From Dictyostelium discoideum (lineage: Eukaryota), in contig CM000151.3 of NCBI GenBank assembly GCA_000004695.1, positions 2,528,001-2,592,000 of the forward strand: a stretch of DNA of 64,000 bases, read 5' to 3'. Positions 11,802-47,617 of the stretch are shown here, in pieces. A model generated the notes under the pieces. It was not told the origin of the DNA and did no database searches. It saw nothing but the letters and a program-made list of their open reading frames with translations. Each line of letters opens with the position of its first letter. The stretch's first letter is position 1. Position numbers and translations under genes: made by a program.

Positions 11802-13126
11802 TTAATTATAAAAATTAAATAAATAATCAATAGTTAAAGAATATTGTTTTAATTGTTGATAAATATGATGAATTAAATTTGGAATTTTTGATTCAAAATA
11901 TAATAAGATAGAATCTTGACTTGATAAATACTCTAAAACTTCTAAATTTGGACGTGATTGTTGATTTTGAAATTGTTGAATGATTGCTCTTTTAATTTCT
12001 TTATGATGAGCAATTGTATTTCTAATGAATCTAATTAAATCTCTAACTTTATCATATTGATATGAAATGGTTATTTTTGAACCTTTTGTTGGTGTTAAAA
12101 GATTGGTTACATCAATTAAATGATTCCAAGAATCATTTAAAAATGGTTCATCATTATCATCACAATGATTTAATTGTTTTGTTAACTTTGAATTGTAACT
12201 TGAGTTTGAAGGTTCTTTAATTAAATTTAAAGCTGCATCAATGAATTGTATTTTCTTTTCTAAATTCCAAAACAATGGATGATTTAAAACATTTTGGATG
12301 GTTGGTCTAATTGATTCATCTTTTGAAATCATTGATTTAATTAAAGTACAAGCCAATTGATTTGAATTCAATGGAGTTAGATTCATTTTATTTGAAATTA
12401 TATTAACTATACGAAATAATTTATCATTACCAAATGGATGTTGACCATTTGTTAAAAGATAAAATAAAATACAACCCAATGAAAATATATCGACAGATTT
12501 TGTCATTCTTTTACTTTGTAATACTTCAAATGGATGATAACCACCTTGACCTGTTGGTATATTACTTGTAAATGAATATGATGATTCAACTTCCATTTTA
12601 CTTAATCCAAGATCTGATATAATGAATGAGTTATTTGAACTATTATTATTATTACTAGTTTTACCAATTAATGTTAAAATATTACGTGGATTTAAATCAT
12701 TATGAACAATATCATGAGAATGAAGGAATTGAATACCAAAGAGAATATCTTTTGCAAGTTCAATAATTGATTTGTTTGATGAAATAACAAAATCATTTAA
12801 TTTACCACTTTCAACTAAATTCTGTAATGATCCATCACATAATGTTAAACCTAAATATACATGAAGTTTATCTTCCTCTTTATCAATATATCTAATCATA
12901 TTTGAACAATTTTTACTTGTTAATGAAATTAATGCTTCAACTTCTTTATTGATAAGTGGATTGAATGCTTTTTGCATTTGTTTAATTGCAACTGGTATTT
13001 TATCACTCCATAAACCTTTAAATACTAATGTACCATTTGAACCTCTACCTAATATATTTGATTCATTTCTATTAAATTTAAATTTACCAATTGATACAAA
13101 ATCTTCATCTTGAATTATATTATTTA

Positions 13127-13198
<72 letters not shown>

Positions 13199-27029: not shown

Positions 27030-30000
27030 TTAAAACATTTAATTGAAACTTGTAAAAATCAATTTAAAAATAATGAAAATTCATTTGGTATGATTGATAG
27101 AGAAGAGTTTAATGGATTTGGAGAATTAGTAAATCAAACTATTTCAAATTTAATTGAATATTCATCATGTTTAGAAGTTAAAGCAAAGGAGAATCAATTA
27201 TCATCTCCATTACAAAATCAATTTATAGATGACGATGACGATGATATTATTAAATTATCACAACAATTGGTAGAGGATGCCAATCGTTTAATTGATATTG
27301 TTAATGATATCTTTTCAGATTTAGACGATCCATCACAAAAACAAAAATTTATAAATCATCAAAATTCATTATTAAATCAATTAAATCATACTTTTAATTT
27401 AATCCAAACAAATTCACCAACTTTATCATTACCAGAATTTACAAATGTAAATAATTATATTCAATCACCAATTCCATCACAATATTCAACTTCAAATATT
27501 AAAACAATTTATAATGATAATAATAATAGTAATAATAATAATAATAATAATAGTATTGAAATTAATAATGAAATTAATAATAATAATAATATTGATAAGA
27601 ATGAAAATAATAATTTACTAAATGATTTAATAAGAGGTATTTCTAAAAGTTGTATTGAAGAATTAAGAGCAGCATGTAGAGGTGATCCAATGGCAACTGA
27701 AACAATTTCAAATTCAATTCAACAATTAATACCAATTTTAAATGATACTTTAAATCAACATATAAAGAATAATAATAATATTAATAAAAATGAAAAAGAG
27801 ATTTTAGAAAAATCAATAAATAAATTAAAGAATGATTTAATTCAAAAATATATTCAATCAGCAACATTAGTAACAAGATCATCAGGTAATCAAAATGTAA
27901 AGAATGATGAAATTAATAAAATGATTGAAGGTTTAGAATCAATTCAAGATTGTTTAAATTCAATCGATGGTATAGTTTCAACAAAAGAAGATCAATTTTT
28001 AAATGCAATTAAAGCAAAAGAAGATGTTTTAACCATTTTATCAGATCATTCAATTGCAAATAATACTCAAGCAATAGTTGGTACATTAAAACACTTAGCA
28101 AAGAATCAACATCAAATTGAAGCATTAATAACAAGTACATCAACAACACCAGATGATGATAATAATAATAATAATAATAGTTCAATTAATCCAGAAATTA
28201 ATGAAGCAGTTTCAAAATTATCAGAATTATTACCATTACAAATTCAAGCTGCAAAACTTTACTTAAAAGATTCAACAAATCTTGAAAATAGAAAACAATT
28301 TACTGATATTTCAAATTCAATGAAATTACCATTATCAAAGATTCAATCATTAATGGAACCATCAACAATTTCAGATTCAAATGAATTATTATCAAAACAA
28401 GAAAATTCTTCAAATCAAGTTTTATTAAATAATATCAACAACAATAGTAACAATAATAATAATAATAATATTGAAGAAAATTCAAAACTAATTGATAAAT
28501 TATTAAAAGATTTAGAAAATGATAATGCAAATTTAGTTGGATTAATTGAATCTGAATTAGTATTATCAAATGATACATTATTAAAAGAATTTGTAAAGAA
28601 AACAATTGATCAACTTTTAAAAGAAGTTCAAAATAGAAGAGATATTGGTATGAATAAATTTTCAAAATCACCATTTGATAAGGATGTAAAACAAGAGTTT
28701 TTAAAATCAAATCAATTGATATCAGATTTATCAAAATCATTAATTGATTGTTTGAAATCATTTGAAGTTGTACCATTATTAAAATTACAATTATTAAATT
28801 GCCATCCACAATCGGTTACACCAAATTCACCAAAATTACAATCAACTCAAAAAGATATAAATAATAGAATTAATTCTATAATTTATAATTACAAAGATCA
28901 AATGCTTGATCAACCATTAATTGAAAATCAAATTAAACAATTAGAATCTTATCAAAATCAATTAAATCAAGAATTATCAAAAGATTTAAATGGTTCAAAA
29001 GATAATTTATCATATATTTTAGATAATATAATTAATAATATATCAAATTTATCAAATTTACCATCTTCCTCCACTAATGATGGTGATGGTGGTGGTCGTC
29101 AAGTAATTATACCAATTGAAAATTTAAATGATGAAATTATTGATGGAATTAATGAAGAGATTAATAAAGAGATTATTAAAGAAAATAAAGAAAATGAAAT
29201 TAAAAGAGATAATGAAAGATTAGAAGAATTGAAACAATTGGAAAATCTATCAAATGACCAAAAACTTTTAAAATTATTTAATGATTTAATTCAATATTTA
29301 AAGAATAATGAAGCAAATAAATCAGTTGTTACATTGAAACAATTAATTGGTGAGCAAGATAAACTAATTCAATTGGGTAATGAAATTAAACAAAATTCAA
29401 ATAGTCAAGATTTTAAAGATCAAATTGATTCTTCAATAAATCTATTTAAAAATTCAATATCCTCTTCAATCGCATTGGCTGGTAAAACTGCAAAAATTAA
29501 TGATGATCCACAATTAACAAAAGCTTGTAAAACTGTTAAAAAATCAATAATTGAATTAACAAGATTATTAAAATTAAATCCATTAATTGAAGAATTATCA
29601 TCATATCAACAAGCTTTATTATTAAAACCACACCCAATTAATGAGAATATAATTAAAGGTTTTAAAGAACATCAAATTAATTCAAGATATTATATTGAAA
29701 CTGCTTATCAAGTTGGTAAAGATGATTTAATATCTCAATCAATTGAAAAAATAGTTTATCAACAAAGTGAACTATTGAAATTGGCTTCAAATCATTTGAC
29801 TTCAAAAGAAGTTTCTGAAACCTTGGATCCAAATATTCAATTACTTTTAGCAAATTCCTTGGAAACTGTAAAGAAATCTATCGTTGATCAAGTTGAAGCT
29901 GCTTTATCATTCTTGGAGAGTGAAAAAAGTGATGATCAAATTGAAAAACTTTTAACAATCCTAGATACAGTTTCAGAGAGTGTTGATAATTGTTCAAAAT

Positions 30001-32780
30001 CAATTTTCTTTGCAACTGGTAAAGGTAAACAACAACAAGATTTATCACCAACTACAATCTCTCAAAATACAATTAAACAATCAATAAATTCAATTATACC
30101 AACATTAACATTACAAGCAACACAATTACAATCAAATCCAAATGATAAAGAATTAGAGAAAAAACATCAACAATTATTAGATCAAATTATTCAACCATTA
30201 GAACAATTAATTTTAAATCCAAATATTAATCAAATAATTGATAAAGAAAATATTGAAAATAATAATAATAATAATAACAATGATAATAATAATAATAATG
30301 ATGATGATGATGATGAAGAAGAAGATAAAAAGATTAAAAAATTAATTAATGATGAAAAGAAAGAATTAGATAAATTAGAATCAAATGCATTAGATTCAGA
30401 TTCAAAAGGTGTTGTTGAATCATCAAGATCATTAGTTAAATTACATCAAGAAATATTATCATTAGCAGATTCATTAACAAGTTCAACGGCAGTATTAATT
30501 GATGCTAATCAAAATAATGCAGATTTTGAAAGAAATTTAATAATTAAAGAATGTTCAAAAGAATTATCAACATTAATACCATTACAATTACAAACTATTA
30601 AATCAATGTTACAATCAAAAGATATACCAACCGAAGCATCCTATCAAAAGAAAGTTGGTTTCATTAATAATCAAATTAAAAGAAACTTAAATGAAATTGA
30701 AAAACAATCTTCAAATAATAATTCAAATTATAAATTAATTTCTAAAACACCTTATTACTCTGACCAATTTAAAAAACTTTCAAATAAAATCGATAATAAT
30801 GGTATGTTAATTAAAGATGAAAATCAATTTAAAGTAAATTTAAAACGTTTAGAGAAATTGGCTGGAAAATGTATAGATTCTTCAAATTTCGATTTATCAA
30901 GACAACAATCTTATTTAGATAAAGAAAGACAACAAAGAATTAGAGATGCAATTAATAAATTAGAAAATAAATTAAATGGTAAAAATAATGATTCCACCGA
31001 TGATTTATCAAATAAAATTAATCAATATTTAAAACAACCCCTAAATCCAATTTCAAGAGAACAATTTGAAAAAGTTAGATCACAATTCCAACAAACTTTA
31101 GATAATTTAATTAATGAACAATTATCAACACCATTACAATTATTATTAAATCATTCAAATTTAATTCAAAAATTATCAAGACAATCAACTCAACAACCAA
31201 TTAATAATAATAATAATGCTAATAATAATGTAAAAATTCAAGAAACTACAAAAAAAATTTTAGAAAATTATTCAAAATTAAAACAACAATTAATTAATAA
31301 TGATATAAAATTAAATGAAAGTAAAAAATTAATAATTGGTAAATCATTAAAAGAAATTGAAACTTTAACACCTCAATTAATTGTTGCATCAAATAATTGT
31401 TTAAATGATAATAATAATGATCAAAAGAAGAGAGAATTATTAGAGAATTTACAAACTAAAATTGAATCACCAATTTATGAAATTTTAAATCAATTAGATT
31501 CAATTGATCCTATATTCCAATTTAAAAATGCAATTAAACAATATCAAGCAACTTTAATTAAATTAAATGATTCAATTGATGTTTCAACAGTGACCAATGA
31601 TAATTCAAAACAAATTGATGAATATATTTCAAAACTATCAAATTTACAATCAAATCATTTAATACCATTATTGAAACAACAAGGTTTAAATGAAAAAGAA
31701 TTAAAAGAATTTGAATCACAATTGAAATCTAAATTATCTGATGTTAACTCAATTTCAAAAGATTATTTAAAGAATTTGAAACAGTCTAAATTGACAGACA
31801 CAATTAAAGCTGAGAAGGATATGTCAATCTCTTCACTTTGTAATTTAATAAATTCAATTCAAAGTATTAATCAACCAAAGATTGAAGATAATCGTATCAA
31901 ACTATCACAATCCTCTCAATCAAAATCAAAAGATATTAAACAATTGGTTGATTCAATTAAGTCAAATAATCTATTGCCAATTGTTGAATCACCAAATAAA
32001 ATTGAACGTTATGTTTCAATTCAAACAAATTCAACTAAACCAATATTTTCATCATCATCATCAAATAATGGTAAAATCATTTCAACAGCTCAAGTAAATT
32101 ATAAACCAAGATCATCTTCACAACCTCAAAAACCAATTTTAACAAATACAAATAATATTACAATTACAAAACCAATTAGACCAATTGAAACTAGAGTACC
32201 AATTAAATTAACAACTCAACCTCAATCTACAAATCCTAAAACTGTACCACCAACAACAACTACTACTACAGAAGCAACTACAACAGCAACAAAACCAATA
32301 CCAAATAAAACACCACAACCAATTAATACTTTTAAACCAAGTGATAAAGGTGCATCATTAGAAGATTCATGTATTAATGCAGCAAATCAAATGTCAAATA
32401 TATCAGGTAATGAACAACTTGGTACAATTGGTAAAGAATTGGAAGCTTATGCAAATGCAATTAAAATTGGTGATAAAAAACAAATTTTATTATGTGGTAG
32501 AAATATATCTATACTTTTAAATAAATATTCAACAGAGGTTTCAAATAATATTAAATCAACTCCAACTTCAAATAAAATGTTACAAACAAGATGTAGTCAT
32601 GGTATTGGTGTTTTACAAACACTAAGTTGTCAATTTAAAATTTTATCAAGTGTTAAAGCTGCTTCTGATGAAAAAGATTCTGACTCTGATTCACAATTAA
32701 CTTCAATGGTTAATCAATTAACTTCAACTTTATTAGATTTAAATACAAGTACAAGTACTTTAAACAAATTTAAAAAGTAA
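26330..32780 (+). CDS. Vinculin/alpha-catenin-family protein (~2,030 aa); 4 exons: 26330..26345, 26455..26555, 26642..26913, 27029..32780
   Basis: Three short upstream exons, each with a GT(A/T)… donor and a …(c)ag acceptor, join in frame to the 1896-aa ORF. N-terminus: …QQMLEQLSENVSQLILTVLELKDKNANLPVVEVV|TAIANAASSISDIAIKLADAEY…KILKVIYDADIKR|LKHLIETCKNQF…. This resembles the vinculin head (…ISHLVIMHEE…AAVSNLVRVGKE…EAEVRKIIRVCKGILEYL). C-terminus: '…TRCSHGIGVLQTLSCQFKILSSVKAASDEKDSDSDSQLTSMVNQLTSTLLDL…', which parallels the vinculin tail '…[23 protein letters not shown]…[23 protein letters not shown]'. A huge N/Q/S-rich helical middle region lies between. Confidence 0.7.
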
Positions 32781-34085
32781 AAAAATAAAAAAAAATAAAT
32801 AAATAAAAAAAATAAAAATAATAAATAATAAAAATAATTTTAAAATAATAAATAATAAAAATAATTTTTCTAAACAAAAAAAAAAATAAAAATAAAAATA
32901 AAAAAAATAATAATAATAATAATTATTAAACAGAAAAAATAAGGAAAAAGTTTGACCATAATTTTTAAAACTCCTAGTAATTTGTTTTTTGTGTTTAACA
33001 GGTTGGTAATAATAAAAGAAAAAAAAAAAAAAAATTAAGTAATTATTTAATCTCAGATCAAAATAATTTGGTGAATGAAATGAAAAGAATAAAGATAAAA
33101 CAAGTATTTAAAAAAAAAAAAAAAAAAAAAAAATCTAATATAAATTAAACTTTTTATTATTTTTCTTCTTTTTTTTTTTTTTATTTTTTTTTTTAATCGT
33201 TTCTTTTATAAAATTTTATTTAAAATATCCAATTTTTAAATTTTTTTTTATTATAATTTTAAAAATAAAATGTGAATGAAAATTCGTCATTTTGAAAGTA
33301 AAAGGTCATTTAAAGTTCCAATTAAAAGAAAAATAATAATAAAAAGATTTTTTAGATAAATTAATTTTTTTTTTTTTTTCTATTCTATTTATTATTTGTT
33401 CTTTTAATAATTAATTTTTTTTTTTTTTTTTCATTGTGTGGTAAGATTCAGTAATATTTTTTCAATTGGATTTCATTTTTTTTTTCCTTTCGAAAGATAT
33501 ACATTTTGAATCATAATTTTTTAAATAGATAATTTTACGGCGAATGGGATTCAAAATGGCATGCAGGTGCTTTTTTTTTTTTTTTTTTTTTTTGCTTGTT
33601 ATTTTTAGATTATTAAAAAAATAAGAAACGGGGAAATTTTTTTTTTTTTTTTTTTCATAAAGATATTTTTTATAATCCCGAAAATAAAAAAAAAAAAAAA
33701 ATTTGGTTTCATGTTCCACCTGAATTCCCACCATCATATGATTAAATGTTGCTATTTAATATTTTATTTTATTTTTTATTATTTTTTTTTTTTTTTTTTT
33801 TTTTCTTTTATTTTTTTTATTTTACCTTTTTTTTTTTTTTTTTTTTTCTTTTTTTAATTCATACCTATCTTTCCACATAATTTTTTTTTTTATTTATTTA
33901 AAAATAAAATAAAAAAAATTAAATTAATTGTAAAGTAAAAAAAAAAAAAAAAGTAATTACTTAAATAAAAATATCTTTTTTTTTTAAAAAAATAAAATCC
34001 AAAATATAAAATATTAATAAAAAAAAAAAAAAAAAAAAAAAAATCTAAATATAAATAAAATTTAAAAAAAAATTATAGATAAAAA

Positions 34086-36867
34086 ATGGGTAAAGGAAGT
34101 GGAGCTCCTTTAAAGGAGAAAGTTTATCCATCTGTTATGTATGGAAATATTAAACCAATTAGAAAACAACCAAAATCATTACCAAAAGAATTAACTATTG
34201 ATCAAATTTTACAATCTCTTCCAAAAGAAGTTTTTGAAACAAGTAATTTTAAATCAGCATGTTCACTTTTAATAACAATCTTATTCATTGGTTTAAGTGC
34301 AACATTCATTACTCTCATGCCATCTTACTTAACCCCAATTGGTTGGATGTTAATGGGTGCCTCAGTTACTGGTGTAAGTAATACAATTATTATTCATTCA
34401 TTTTTTATTATTTCCATTTTCACTTTTTTTTTATTTTTTTTAAACAAAATTTTTTTTTTTTTTTTTTTTCTGAAAGTGACTTGAAATTTTCAAGTGGGAA
34501 AAAAAAAAAACCGTCACAGTTCCAGACTACCAAATTTTTTTTTTCAATCACAATGATTGTTATTTTATTTTTTTTTTGATTACCATCAAAAAAAAAAAAG
34601 CACCCATTTTACAAAAACAAAAAAAAAAAAAAAATAATAATTAAAAATAATTAAAATTTTTTTTTTTTATTTGCATCTTTTTTTTTTTTTTTCCAAAATA
34701 TCTAATCACTAACCCAACAAAACTTTTTTTTTATTTTTTATTTTTTTTTTTTTTTTAATATCTTTTAAAATATGACAACCTCTCACACTAATAGTTAATG
34801 GTAATTGGTAATGATTGTATTCATAAAACTTTTTCAAAGAATCCATTAGTTAATTCAATTATTGGAACAATTGTAATGTTACCATTGTTATATCCATTCC
34901 AATCTTACAAGATTTCAGAAAAGAATAATGCAGAAAAGAAATCGACAGCTGTTTTAAATGGTGAACAATTCAAGATTAATGCACATACCACAACCGAAAG
35001 TACAAATCCAATTAGACAATGGGCAACTGGTAAATTCTTTTGGATTTTATCAATTATTAATTGGTCTGAAAATTATTTCTCAACTAAAAATTTATCAGAT
35101 AAAAAAGATAAAACCAAAGCAATCGTTTCAATTGCAATTGTTTACATTTTTGGATTTATTTTCTTCCCAATGATGTTTAAATTTGTAGGTGTAAGTGGAT
35201 TCCTTAATTATTGGTTCGCACCATGGTTAGTTTTACATTTCTTACTTTCAACTGCTTCATTATTACCATCAATTCCATTTTATGAAGAATTACAAGTTGC
35301 TTCAAAATTAGAAAAATCAAATAATAATAATAACAATAACAAAGGTGATAAGAAATCATCTGAAGTTGAAAAATATTTAGTACATATTACATATCCACAA
35401 TGGTTTGAATTTATTGTTAAAGATATTAATTTTTCATTACCAAGACAAATTGCAGTTTCAATTCCACATTATAATCTAAGAAAAGCTTATAATTCATTTA
35501 AAAAGAGTTGGGGTGAATATATTTATGAATGTACATTTGAAACTGAATTATTTAAAGAATTAATTATCCGTAGTGAAAACTTTTCAAATGAAATTTTCTC
35601 ACCATTTGATTCAGCTCCATTGGTACCAGATCAAGAAAAGAAAGCAGAAGCAACCGCTGAAGCCGTTTCAAATAGTCGTACAAGTCGTACTGTTAAAGAA
35701 TTTTTAAAATCAATCAATTGGTTACATGTTATCATTTTAATTGGTATTCCATTCATTGGTCTCTATGGTCTAATTAATGTAGAGTGTTCATTGAAAACAT
35801 TTATTTGGTCATTTATTTATTATCATTTCACTGGTATGGGTATTACAGCAGGTTATCATAGACTTTGGGCTCATAAGGCTTATAGTGCAGTTTTACCAGT
35901 TCGTATTATCTTGTTGCTATTTGGTGCAGGTGCTGTCGAAGGTTCATGTCGTTGGTGGTCAAGAGATCATCGTGCTCATCATCGTTATCTCGATACTGAT
36001 AAAGATCCATATTCAGCTTCATTGGGTTTCTGGCATTCCCATTTCATTTGGTTAATGTTCAAACAAGATCCAAAGAAAATCGGTAGAGCAAACATTGACG
36101 ACCTTAACGCCGATCCATGGGTTATGTGGCAACATAAACATTACATTAAAATCGCCACTTTTATGGGTCTCGTTTTCCCAACATTGGTAGCTGGTTTAGG
36201 TTGGGGTGATTGGGCTGGTGGTTATTTCTACTCTGGTGTACTTCGTCTCGTTACAGTTCAACATTCCACATTCTTGGTCAATTCATTGGCTCATTATTTA
36301 GGTGACTCTCCATACGATGATGAACATACTCCAAAGGATTCAGTTGTGACTGCTATATTAACATTTGGTGAAGGTTATCATAACTTCCATCATGAATTCC
36401 CAAATGACTATAGAAACGCTTATAAATTCTATCAATATGATCCAACTAAATGGTTGATCTCTGCAATGTATTATTTAGGCTTGGCTTATGATTTGAAAAC
36501 TTTCTCCAAAAATGAAATTGAAAAAGGTATGATTCAAATGCACCAAAAACATTTAGACGCAAAGAAACAATCAATCTATTGGGGTATCAATAAAGAAGAT
36601 TTACCATCAATGACAATCGATGAATTTAATAATTTGGTTGAAAAAGAAAATAAAAAGTTAATGATAATCAACAAAACCGTATTAGATGTCGAATCTTTTG
36701 TTAATGATCACCCAGGTGGTTTAGCTTACATTAAAATGGGTATTGGTAAAGATGCAACTTCAATGTTTACTGGTGAAGTTTATGCTCATTCAAATGCTGC
36801 TAAAAATTTATTATGTCAATTTTCAATTGCTAAAATTGTTGATAATCATGATAAAAAACAACAATAA
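34086..36867 (+). CDS. Tri-domain desaturase fusion: degenerate FAD2-type desaturase domain + Delta9 (stearoyl-CoA) desaturase + cytochrome b5; 2 exons: 34086..34373, 34795..36867
   Basis: Exon 1 (MGKGSGAPLKEK…LPKEVFETSNFKS…PIGWMLMGASVTG) matches the FAD2/Delta12 N-terminus. Donor GGT|gtaagt, a 421-bp intron, acceptor ctaatag|. Exon 2 continues 'LMVIGNDCIHKTFS…YKISEKNNA…PRQIAVSIPHYNLRKAYNSFKKSWGEYIYE', which aligns with FAD2 'IWVIAHECGHHAFS…WKYSHRRHH…[32 protein letters not shown]' but with all three His boxes substituted. Then comes an intact Delta9 desaturase (HRLWAHKAY; RDHRAHHRY; GYHNFHHEFP) and a C-terminal cytochrome b5 (HPGG…). There is no stop codon between the domains. Confidence 0.8.
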
Positions 36868-37064
36868 TCAAAAAAACAAACAACTTTTAAAATTGGATTA
36901 AACCCCTAATTTTAATTTAATTAAGTTTATAATATTTTAAAATATTATATAATTTAGTTCACTCAAAAATCAATATTCAATAATAATTTTTTTATCTATA
37001 TATCCAATAATTTTTTTTTTCTATTTTTTCTTTATTTTCACAATTCATAATAATTATAACAAAA

Positions 37065-37099
<35 letters not shown>

Positions 37100-37765
37100 G
37101 TTTTTCTTTTTTTTTTTTTTAAAACCAATATTTTATAAAATTCCTCATCCCATCAATATCATAATGTAAACATATAATAAAGTAATAATAAAAAAAAAAA
37201 AAAAACATTGATTTTAAAAATCTTGTTTTAATTATTAGAAAATTCAAATTTGTCATTCAAATGGGTTAATTTTATTTATTTATTATATATCGTGTGAGAT
37301 TTTTTGGATTTAAAAATTTTTTTTTTTTTTATATTAATAATCATTTTTATTTAATCATCTCACCATCACTTTTTATCAAAAAAAAAAAAAAAAAAATATA
37401 ATTATTAATTTGTTGTGGTGAATTGTGTGTTGAAAAAAAAGATTGGATTTTATATTTTTTTTCATAATTTTTTAAAAGAATATTGATTAAATATAGAAAT
37501 CCTAAATAAGTAATCAATATTCTTTTTCAACCTATTTTTTTTTTTTTTTTTTAAAAAAAGTTTTGGTAAAATTAATTGAAATAATTCTATTACTAGATGA
37601 ATGGCTTTTTTTTTTTTTTTTCAAATAAACAAATAAAAAAAAAAAAAATTATAATATTACAATTTAAAAAATTTAAGTATTTAAATCAATTGAATAAATT
37701 TTTATTTTTTTAATTTCAATTCCTAAATAAACAATAAAAAATAAATCAAAAAAAAAAAAAAAACA

Positions 37766-38699: not shown

Positions 38700-40175
38700 T
38701 TAATTAATTAATAAAGCATATAGTAATTTACAACCTTTTGGTAATGAATTTAAATCTAATAATTCTCTTTTATATAATTCAGAAATTGTTAATTCAGTAC
38801 AAGTATTTGGTATAACATTATTTGAAATTGAATGATTTTGAAATTGTGAACTTAAAATAATCTTTTTACAACCATTTGGAATTGAAAATGGCTCAATTGG
38901 TGCATTGAAAAATAAAAATTCTAAAGTTTCAAGTGATGATGGTAATATACCAATGGTCAATGGTGATTTATTTAAATTACTATAGATTAAATGTTTGATT
39001 GAGTTTGGGAATATACCAGGCTCAACTATTTGATTAAATTCTCTACCAAGTTTTAAATAAGTTAATGTCGATGGTAAACTATTTGATTGAAATTTTTTAT
39101 TATAAAAATAACCAAATGATAAACTCTCAATACCATCATTCAAAGTATATGGCTTCAATTCCTGATTAAATCTAGCACCAAATACTAATTTCTTAATTGA
39201 CTTGAATGTACTCAATTCAATAGGTTGATTAAATTCACTACCAAATGTAATTTCAGTAATATTGTCAATAGAATTTGGTAAAATTGGTTTATTATATTTA
39301 TAAGCTAAATTTAAAATTTTTAAAGATTTTGGAAAATCTTTATATTGAACATCATAGTAATCTGATAATGTCAATTTTTCAATATATTTCAAATTTGAAA
39401 TTTCAATTTGTTTTGTTTGTAGTGGGCCCATTATTAAAACTTTTAAACTTTCTGGTAACTCATCTGATTTAATATTTTGATCATAATTTCCCAATGTTAA
39501 ACTAGTTATACTATTTGGTAAATCACCTTTTTTAATTGGAAAATTGTAATTTTCTGAAATTATTAATTTTTTTAAAGAGTTTGGTAAAACTCCTTCTTTA
39601 AATTTAATATTATACTTATACCCTAAATTTAAAGAGGTTAATGAGTTTGGCAATGATCCAATTTTAATTTCAGTATTAAACGATGGCGAATTTCTAAAAT
39701 CAATTAATTTAACACTATTTGGAATTGAGTTTACTAGTATTGGTTTATTGAATAAATGACTAAAATAAATATTTTTTAAATTTTTTGGTAAAACACCACA
39801 ATCAATGGATTGATTAAATTGTATGCCCAAGTCAAGGGTTGTAAGCGAATTTGGTAAAACTCTAGCACTAATTCTTGTATCAAATGCTACACCAAAATCA
39901 ATTGTTGAAACATTGTTTGGAATATCACCTTCTTCTAATAAATCATTGAAATGATCAACAAATTTAATTGTTCTAATATATTCTCTATATTTATGTTCTC
40001 TTAATTGTTTTATTTCTTTAATATTTTGAATATCATATTTTGATATTAAAATTGCATCTTGCCATATCTTTTTTTTTAATACAATATTTCTCCAAATTTT
40101 AAAAAATAATATTGAATTATCATCATTTAATTGATTAATAATTGTAAATTCATTATATTTTGAAAGTACAACCAT
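38700..40175 (-). CDS. FNIP-repeat protein, 491 aa
   Basis: About 20 tandem ~22-aa FNIP repeats (…LPNSLTSLNLGYKYNIKFKEGVLPNSLKKLIISENYNFPIKKGDLPNSITSLTLG…) after an F-box-like N-terminus. Typical Dictyostelium family; single exon. Confidence 0.8.
   Translation of the reverse strand: MVVLSKYNEFTIINQLNDDNSILFFKIWRNIVLKKKIWQDAILISKYDIQNIKEIKQLREHKYREYIRTIKFVDHFNDLLEEGDIPNNVSTIDFGVAFDTRISARVLPNSLTTLDLGIQFNQSIDCGVLPKNLKNIYFSHLFNKPILVNSIPNSVKLIDFRNSPSFNTEIKIGSLPNSLTSLNLGYKYNIKFKEGVLPNSLKKLIISENYNFPIKKGDLPNSITSLTLGNYDQNIKSDELPESLKVLIMGPLQTKQIEISNLKYIEKLTLSDYYDVQYKDFPKSLKILNLAYKYNKPILPNSIDNITEITFGSEFNQPIELSTFKSIKKLVFGARFNQELKPYTLNDGIESLSFGYFYNKKFQSNSLPSTLTYLKLGREFNQIVEPGIFPNSIKHLIYSNLNKSPLTIGILPSSLETLEFLFFNAPIEPFSIPNGCKKIILSSQFQNHSISNNVIPNTCTELTISELYKRELLDLNSLPKGCKLLYALLIN

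Positions 40176-41064: not shown

Positions 41065-47617
<6,553 letters not shown>

Follow-up and report, generated by a model that had tools for sequence, protein, structure and literature searches.

A gene at positions 34,086 to 36,867 of a 64,000-nucleotide stretch of Dictyostelium discoideum DNA (contig CM000151.3, positions 2,528,001 to 2,592,000; hereafter the window) was found to encode one polypeptide in which a desaturase-fold module depleted of its catalytic histidines (the N-module) is followed by an intact Δ9 desaturase and a cytochrome b5, as had been claimed in the initial annotation of this DNA. The N-module, which appears from its residues to have lost catalysis, was found to be under tighter constraint than the rest of the protein. 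The protein belongs to the wider theme of desaturase-b5 fusions and can be viewed as an active enzyme joined to a paralogous pseudoenzyme domain. As an overall explanation, we consider it probable that an ancient ω6 desaturase-Δ9 desaturase-b5 fusion has been retained, with its ω6 half now selected as a non-catalytic partner. The identity and evolutionary description of the protein are put forward with high confidence, while the specific mechanism of the partner is offered tentatively.

To our knowledge, every characterised membrane desaturase requires a His-ligated di-iron centre, as in the SCD1 structures (4ymk and 4zyo). In the N-module, all three His boxes were found to be degraded and seven of the eight canonical His residues to be lost, with H106 of box 1 the only one left; the three-His-box signature of a di-iron centre is therefore missing. 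By this measure, the N-module would be a homologue of the membrane desaturase family and not a competent enzyme of that family. The earlier claim that every catalytic His box is substituted thus stands for the degradation of the boxes and falls for H106. Box 3 had also been placed at RQIAV, three residues downstream of its true register (SLPRQ), and the loss of all box 3 His residues holds with the register corrected. In an alignment of 55 full-length relatives, several positions around the former boxes were found to be conserved, including: (i) D103, C104, and H106, which were kept in at least 90% of the fused proteins with C104 invariant; (ii) N102 and H106, which were invariant among the dictyostelids; and (iii) R313, which was conserved across the amoebozoan fused forms. 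The three boxes of the Δ9 module and the haem motif of cytochrome b5, described as intact from the outset, were invariant in 55 of 55 aligned sequences.

Selection was estimated by the Nei-Gojobori method from the coding DNA of D. discoideum, D. firmibasis, D. citrinum, and D. dimigraforme (six species pairs). The structured part of the N-module (245 codons) displayed 31-55 synonymous versus 0-2 nonsynonymous differences per pair, giving a ratio of nonsynonymous to synonymous substitution rates (dN/dS) of 0.000-0.014, with three amino acid positions variable among the four species. For the same species, dN/dS was 0.046-0.086 in the Δ9 module, 0.08-0.14 in the b5 region, and, for five of the six pairs, 0.13-0.22 in the linker. 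Comparison with D. purpureum gave 0.085 for the structured N-module and 0.160 for the Δ9 module at a synonymous rate (dS) of about 1; because this is near synonymous saturation, the four closer species were relied upon. Across Dictyostelia, the N-module core is conserved to the same degree as the catalytic Δ9 module, with identities for the N-module and Δ9 module of 81% and 80% to D. purpureum, 75% and 69% to P. violaceum, and 63% and 67% to T. lacteum, respectively. Mean pairwise identity among the dictyostelids was 0.79 for the cap at former box 1 and 0.70 for the cap at former box 3, compared with 0.70-0.73 for the Δ9 catalytic segments, 0.14 for the box 2 loop (residues 136-170), and 0.03 for an Asn-rich loop (residues 263-289). 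The low-complexity part of the latter loop (35300-35350, residues ~266-282) was also seen to vary between D. discoideum strains. Loss of seven of eight His residues combined with a dN/dS below that of the active module marks the N-module as a pseudoenzyme under selection, and this very strong purifying selection bears out the initial idea that the domain is functional and not junk.

The initial annotation had assigned the N-module to the FAD2/Δ12 desaturases. Our comparisons point instead to FAD6/DesA, the plastid/cyanobacterial ω6 acyl-lipid desaturases, as the parent family, and not to FAD2 of the endoplasmic reticulum (ER). With the Dictyostelium N-module as query, HMMER was run exhaustively over 1.84 billion representatives and returned 538 matches, the best free-standing of which (P0257-P0262) were 31-32% identical over ~320 residues (E 7e-42 to 4e-35) and carried HDCxH, HxxHH, and H(I/V)PHH boxes. 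Among the best 150 of the 538 matches, 40 of the 146 newly returned representatives had the HxPHH box of FAD6/DesA, and none of the 146 had the FAD2-type HVAHH or the ω3-type HVIHH. The N-module scored 160-190 bits against FAD6 sequences; against an unverified Arabidopsis FAD2 sequence, it scored 33 bits, a value that serves as a lead only. A scan of the N-module against NCBIfam gave weak matches only (GntB and bacterial DesA/DesB), which were far below the cut-offs and did not discriminate the sub-family. Chloroplast ω6 FAD6 and cyanobacterial-type Δ12 desaturases shared 50-57% identity with the intact N-module of Cyanophora.

The modular organization of the protein was supported by profile, structure, and fold comparisons. 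FA_desaturase (PF00487) was matched twice by the product in HMMER, a check proposed with the initial annotation, and Cyt-b5 once; the N-terminal 371 residues by themselves matched PF00487 at E 4.4e-11 and 43.5 bits (gathering cut-off 29.7). When solved structures were searched with phmmer, residues 404-670 matched mouse/human SCD1 (E 5.5e-58, 4ymk) and residues 711-780 matched cytochrome b5 structures of the PDB, while the N-terminal part had a single relative, chain K of 8xks (E 1e-9). The full-length AlphaFold model had a mean predicted local distance difference test (pLDDT) score of 77.7, with confident helices in both desaturase modules. Within the N-module, pLDDT exceeded 90 for helices 54-105 and 199-250 and for the cytosolic cap, and hydrophobic segments were located at 54-100 and 202-233; two membrane-helix hairpins and a cytosolic helical cap, which define the desaturase fold, are thus present. 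The Δ9 module has four helices of its own. Foldseek matched the model to SCD1 (1e-15, template modelling score 0.77), to 8xqw_M and 8xks_K (7e-11 and 2e-10, ~360 columns, template modelling score 0.59-0.64), and to cytochrome b5.

The joined coding sequence of 2361 nucleotides (nt) encodes 786 residues plus a stop codon, the earlier figure of 787 having included the stop. The product is a 100% match to XP_644535.1 of D. discoideum AX4 (EAL70609.1 / EAL70770.1), labelled 'delta 9 fatty acid desaturase'; thus the gene and its exact model are already public, and the exon boundaries and stop-free reading frame into Δ9-b5 read from the DNA at the outset agree with them. The 288-nt length of exon 1 is kept in four other Dictyostelium species, and an intron after codon 96 was also found in D. 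firmibasis, D. citrinum, D. dimigraforme, and D. purpureum, where it is 244-311 nt long. The exon junction, with …GASVTG on one side and LMVIGNDC… on the other, aligned without gaps to intron-free transcripts from distant taxa. The guanine-plus-cytosine (GC) content of the window is 0.21, strongly AT-rich and Dictyostelium-like. Exon 2, linker included, was 0.23-0.43 GC throughout, and the flanking intergenic DNA 0.07-0.15; because composition is coding-like across exon 2, nothing resembling intergenic DNA separates the two desaturase halves. The features of the gene are collected in Table 1.

Table 1. Features of the desaturase fusion gene; positions are those of the window and residues those of the 786-residue product.
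Feature	Positions	Strand	Residues or codons	Description
Exon 1	34086..34373	+	codons 1-96	ATG at 34086; GTAAGT donor at 34374; 96 codons, phase 0, 288 nt; N-tail, amphipathic helix, transmembrane helices TM1-TM2 of the presumed dead FAD6/DesA-type module
Intron	34374..34794	+		GTAAGT...TAG, GT-AG, 421 nt, GC 0.17
Exon 2	34795..36867	+	codons 97-786 + stop	uninterrupted open reading frame; rest of the presumed dead module, linker, Δ9, b5
Presumed dead FAD6/DesA-type desaturase module	34221..35562	+	46-352	spans intron; PF00487 match
Box 1 remnant NDCIH	34810..34824	+	102-106	HDCxH in intact relatives; second His kept
Box 2 remnant EKNNA	34918..34932	+	138-142	HDxHH in intact relatives; at start of unconstrained loop
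Box 3 remnant SLPRQ	35434..35448	+	310-314	HVPHH in intact relatives
Inter-module linker	35563..35721	+	353-405	predicted disordered; GC 0.29-0.35, coding-like
SCD/Ole1-type Δ9 acyl-CoA desaturase module (predicted)	35722..36522	+	406-672	Pfam E 2e-29
Δ9 box HRLWAH	35857-35874	+	451-456	
Δ9 box HRAHH	35968-35982	+	488-492	
Δ9 box HNFHH	36379-36393	+	625-629	
Cytochrome b5 module	36622..36846	+	706-780	PF00173 E 1e-12 (residues 711-777)
b5 haem motif HPGG	36709-36720	+	735-738	

The same three-module order was found in more than 50 proteins of about 700-800 residues. These included all sampled dictyostelids (Dictyostelium, Polysphondylium, Cavenderia, Heterostelium, Tieghemostelium, and Synstelium) as well as Physarum, Clastostelium, Diphylleia, Ancoracysta, Paulinella, the glaucophytes Cyanophora and Cyanoptyche, and many environmental transcripts. 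A search of other dictyostelid and amoebozoan genomes, suggested along with the initial annotation, thus recovers the fusion in the sampled dictyostelids, Physarum, and Clastostelium; the novelty implied by calling the architecture unfamiliar did not hold, as the protein is annotated in AX4 and occurs across several eukaryotic supergroups. De novo transcripts marked complete carry the fusion in Cyanoptyche (MMETSP), Diphylleia, Clastostelium, Ancoracysta, and Physarum, so that a single mRNA for the fusion is supported at the transcript level in these relatives. Clastostelium 'isoforms' of 601 residues were considered as Δ9-only transcripts and rejected as 5′-truncated assemblies.

The fused proteins differ in how many His residues of the N-module they retain. 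All eight were found only in the two glaucophytes, whose N-module, by this residue pattern, is presumably active. Boxes 1 and 2 were kept in Diphylleia and a group of environmental sequences, with box 3 reading xVPHY; box 1 alone was kept in Clastostelium and its relatives; and the His residues were essentially all lost in the dictyostelids, Physarum, and Ancoracysta. A 740-residue transcript of Physarum polycephalum (P0260) was observed to have HDCALH, with an insertion, at box 1 and to have lost boxes 2 and 3. Other multidomain desaturases were also encountered. One (P0269, 639 residues, a Logan contig) is a tandem desaturase with an intact FAD6/DesA-like module (HDCAH, HQHHH, HVPHH) and an SCD-like second module (HRLYAH, HKIHH, HAYHH), without cytochrome b5. 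Two more (P0281, 674 residues, and P0310, 659 residues) are DesA-like (HDCGH, HNMHH, HTAHH) with a C-terminal extension of ~300 residues that has a GxSxG-like motif (SHSMG / AHSLG) and may represent an α/β-hydrolase fusion.

In a neighbour-joining tree of the Δ9 and b5 modules, the fused proteins were separated from the stand-alone Ole1-like proteins by a single branch (bootstrap 69/100), where the truncated fusion contigs P0035 and P0046 were counted as fused and the fungal protein P0094, with its long N-terminus, was counted as stand-alone. The dictyostelids formed a group with a bootstrap of 100/100 in the same tree. The single split is consistent with one old fusion.

We propose that the single polypeptide is an eight-helix ER membrane protein composed of a dead FAD6/DesA module, an active Δ9 module, and a b5 electron donor. 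Its ancestor would have joined an ω6 desaturase to a Δ9 desaturase-b5, with the one b5 shared, and in this form, as in the intact glaucophyte fusion, substrate could be converted to 18:1 and then to 18:2 within one chain. In the slime-mould lineage (Dictyostelia, Physarum, and Clastostelium), the ω6 half would have lost its di-iron ligands, while strong selection would have retained its fold, including the membrane helices and the cytosolic cap at former boxes 1 and 3. The D. discoideum protein would then act solely as a Δ9 desaturase; Δ9 regiospecificity on acyl-CoA is expected from the 53-59% identity to Ole1-type enzymes and from the 9-monoenes that D. discoideum makes together with 5,9/5,11-dienes (PMC11900508). 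According to the same review, linoleate is not reported for D. discoideum and is synthesised by Physarum (PMC11900508), and the loss of the ω6 ligands is consistent with a D. discoideum lacking linoleate. The dead module would be a non-catalytic partner indispensable to the Δ9 half, or to the cell. Its most likely form within our tentative mechanism would be an iron-free acyl/lipid-binding or docking unit in an in-cis desaturase heterodimer, and not a simple anchor; an acyl/lipid-binding or docking role is favoured because FAD6a of Chlamydomonas, described below, is the closest precedent.

Several observations weigh against parts of this explanation. Physarum carries the same dead-module fusion and nonetheless makes linoleate, so that its Δ12 activity must stem from another gene and the lipid-profile argument amounts to consistency, not proof. 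Transcript support for the fusion comes from the relatives, and for D. discoideum itself the single transcript is predicted from the gene. In a neighbour-joining tree of the N-modules, those of the glaucophytes were found among free-standing FAD6-like proteins and apart from the dead modules; the dead modules were on long branches, which likely explain why the monophyly of the fused N-modules was not resolved by this tree. It is thus the Δ9 tree that carries the single origin of the fusion, with moderate support. A fixed in-cis 'heterodimer' is not supported by structure prediction, because two full-length AlphaFold runs gave predicted template modelling scores of 0.48 and 0.46 with no confident inter-domain packing (from shallow alignments of 33 and 43 sequences) and because the linker is predicted to be disordered (pLDDT <50 at 357-393). 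Finally, the data do not discriminate among the roles put forward in the initial annotation (membrane scaffold, substrate presentation, regulation, or heteromer mimic), and they agree alike with lipid binding, docking, help in folding, and regulation.

The last of these roles leads to the alternative that fares best, although we regard it as rather unlikely: that the dead module is regulatory and senses membrane lipid saturation or binds a lipid ligand, and thereby controls how stable or active the Δ9 enzyme is or where it is located. The levels and turnover of SCD1 and Ole1 are tightly controlled. A regulatory role would agree with selection being strong on both the cytosolic cap and the helices, and the ~40-residue flexible linker and lack of confident packing would suit a module whose position changes with respect to the enzyme; the fatty-acid-like density in iron-free FAD6a (bioRxiv 10.1101/2024.09.02.610899) would also suit a lipid ligand. 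However, no regulatory motif or degron was identified, and a passive partner fits the same data equally.

Far less probable is that the N-module is an evolutionary relic, either a membrane anchor or topology element only or a product of neutral decay. Such a relic could be read from the seven lost metal ligands and from the two unconstrained loops with their low-complexity Asn run. However, the combination of a dN/dS of 0-0.014, below that of the active Δ9 module, with the conserved cap rules out a relic in decay and speaks against an anchor alone. A soluble cap, unnecessary for an anchor, is among the most conserved segments; the Δ9 module already brings four helices of its own; and the N-module matches the Δ9 module in identity across Dictyostelia.

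The remaining two alternatives we consider slightly more improbable still. The extreme constraint on the former active-site cap, together with D103, C104, H106, and R313, could be taken to mean that the N-module is still an enzyme with non-canonical ligands or another cofactor, and yet one His is insufficient to build a di-iron centre, box 2 falls within a loop that varies freely, and D. discoideum has no reported Δ12 product (PMC11900508). Under the other alternative, two adjacent genes or transcripts (a dead desaturase and a Δ9-b5) would have been merged wrongly into one gene model. This view could draw on a 337-residue N-module-only model from Acytostelium (P0256), which was considered as a separate gene and rejected since its source flags it as 'partial', and is countered by the continuous reading frame with coding-like composition through the linker and by the same architecture in more than 50 proteins, including single transcripts of at least five distant taxa.

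Overall, the gene, its model, and its Pfam domains were already known from public databases, and the C-terminal modules are those of an ordinary Ole1-type Δ9-b5; what is new is that purifying selection acts more strongly on the dead module than on the catalytic Δ9 module. In the accessible literature, which leaves most subscription journals outside, no description was found of the fusion, of the dead module and the selection on it, or of the glaucophyte form with its intact N-module. Membrane desaturases are usually viewed as stand-alone or, at most, b5-fused enzymes, and here two different desaturases are joined. The protein offers a natural case of one fused desaturase turned pseudoenzyme and guarded by selection more tightly than the active half, and thus a tractable system for the role of an iron-free desaturase fold in lipid binding, partner stabilisation, or channelling, a question that is topical since an iron-free FAD6-like subunit turned up in the chloroplast protein-import motor. 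There is also a consequence for annotation: where the N-module is counted as a 'fatty acid desaturase', the lipids predicted for Amoebozoa and other protists could be misjudged. A bolder proposition, which we hold to be doubtful, is that the dead module is an iron-free acyl-lipid-binding unit obligatory for the main Δ9 desaturase of the cell and that the family is a decayed 'desaturase line'. If this were true, the dead module might pass lipid-linked chains to or from the Δ9 site or set its substrate pool, and the family would be the remnant of an ancient single-chain 18:0 to 18:1 to 18:2 line that decayed independently in several eukaryotic supergroups. The presence of a plastid/cyanobacterial-type ω6 domain in non-photosynthetic amoebae would then point to a pre-plastid eukaryotic origin of this type or to an old eukaryote-to-eukaryote transfer.

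Additional observations were made on the intron, the copy number, and the surroundings of the gene. Amid unalignable A/T runs, the intron contains islands common to four Dictyostelium species, CGTCA (34512-34516, within AACCGTCAC) and TACCATCAAA (34581-34590). A branch-point-like CTAA (34709-34712) within CACTAAC is likewise conserved among the introns of the four species, and a TTCAAGTGGG block was present in three of the four. An Rfam scan of 33000-37600 gave no match, the conserved intron islands included, and no transfer RNAs were found in the window. EAL70609.1 and EAL70770.1 are two accessions for the identical protein on the 8.48-Mb AX4 record, and the gene is probably present twice in AX4, whose chromosome 2 we take to carry a large duplication; with two copies, a knock-out must remove both. 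Directly upstream of the gene is an open reading frame of 1896 residues (27090-32780, forward strand), for which no Pfam match was found at E <= 0.001. Of the neighbours downstream, an FNIP-repeat protein (38700-40175, reverse strand) and a Sec7/BIG-type guanine-nucleotide exchange factor for Arf (42821-47293, forward strand; Sec7, HUS, HDS, BIG2_C) are not lipid-related. Further upstream, a 1316-residue reading frame (11802-15752, reverse strand) has protein kinase and Ribonuc_2-5A domains and resembles the ER stress sensor IRE1.

The protein can be compared with several known systems. Fungal Ole1-type enzymes (e.g., OLE1 of S. cerevisiae; P0039-P0120) are 53-59% identical over the C-terminal ~390 residues and share with the Dictyostelium protein the three His boxes, the desaturase-then-b5 order, and HPGG; they differ in being ~430-510 residues long, without the 350-residue N-terminal desaturase-fold module. 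The glaucophyte proteins (Cyanophora paradoxa, P0026; Cyanoptyche gloeocystis, P0027) have the same module order in 776-777 residues, with a Δ9 module that is 61-63% identical to that of Dictyostelium and an N-module that is only 34-36% identical. The FAD6/DesA ω6 (Δ12) desaturases, which normally take electrons from ferredoxin and not from b5, share with the N-module their motif spacing and flanking residues (G-x-DC-x-H, the P of H-x-P-H-H, and IPHYNL). Unlike these enzymes, the Dictyostelium N-module has seven of its eight His ligands replaced, is fused to another enzyme, and resides in a non-photosynthetic amoeba.

The sole solved structure that matches the N-module is FAD6a/'FADL' of Chlamydomonas (8xks_K and 8xqw_M), a FAD6-like subunit of the Orf2971(Ycf2)-FtsHi import motor. 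Its His boxes are conserved in part, and its tunnel contains a fatty-acid-like density, while density for iron is absent (bioRxiv 10.1101/2024.09.02.610899). FAD6a and the N-module are both FAD6-derived with degenerate His boxes, and the role of FAD6a is structural; FAD6a differs in being free-standing, in the chloroplast inner envelope, with a long N-terminal extension, and part of an import machine with no active desaturase fused to it. Among its free-standing green-alga-like relatives, P0312, P0344, and P0370 have degenerate boxes in which box 3 has become LPQ/LPR, with Arg or Gln in place of His after a kept Pro as in SLPRQ of Dictyostelium, a shared substitution that may be convergence; P0272 differs, with boxes 1 and 2 lost and box 3 kept as HIPHH.

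Pairing of two distinct membrane desaturases is also known from FAD2-FAD3, whose heterodimers channel their product (Lou et al. 2014, as cited in PMC6314118). These pairs are non-covalent, both partners are active, and neither is a Δ9 enzyme, whereas packing between the Dictyostelium modules is predicted without confidence. By this comparison, the intact glaucophyte fusion would correspond to such a pair linked covalently, and the Dictyostelium protein to a pair in which one partner is dead.

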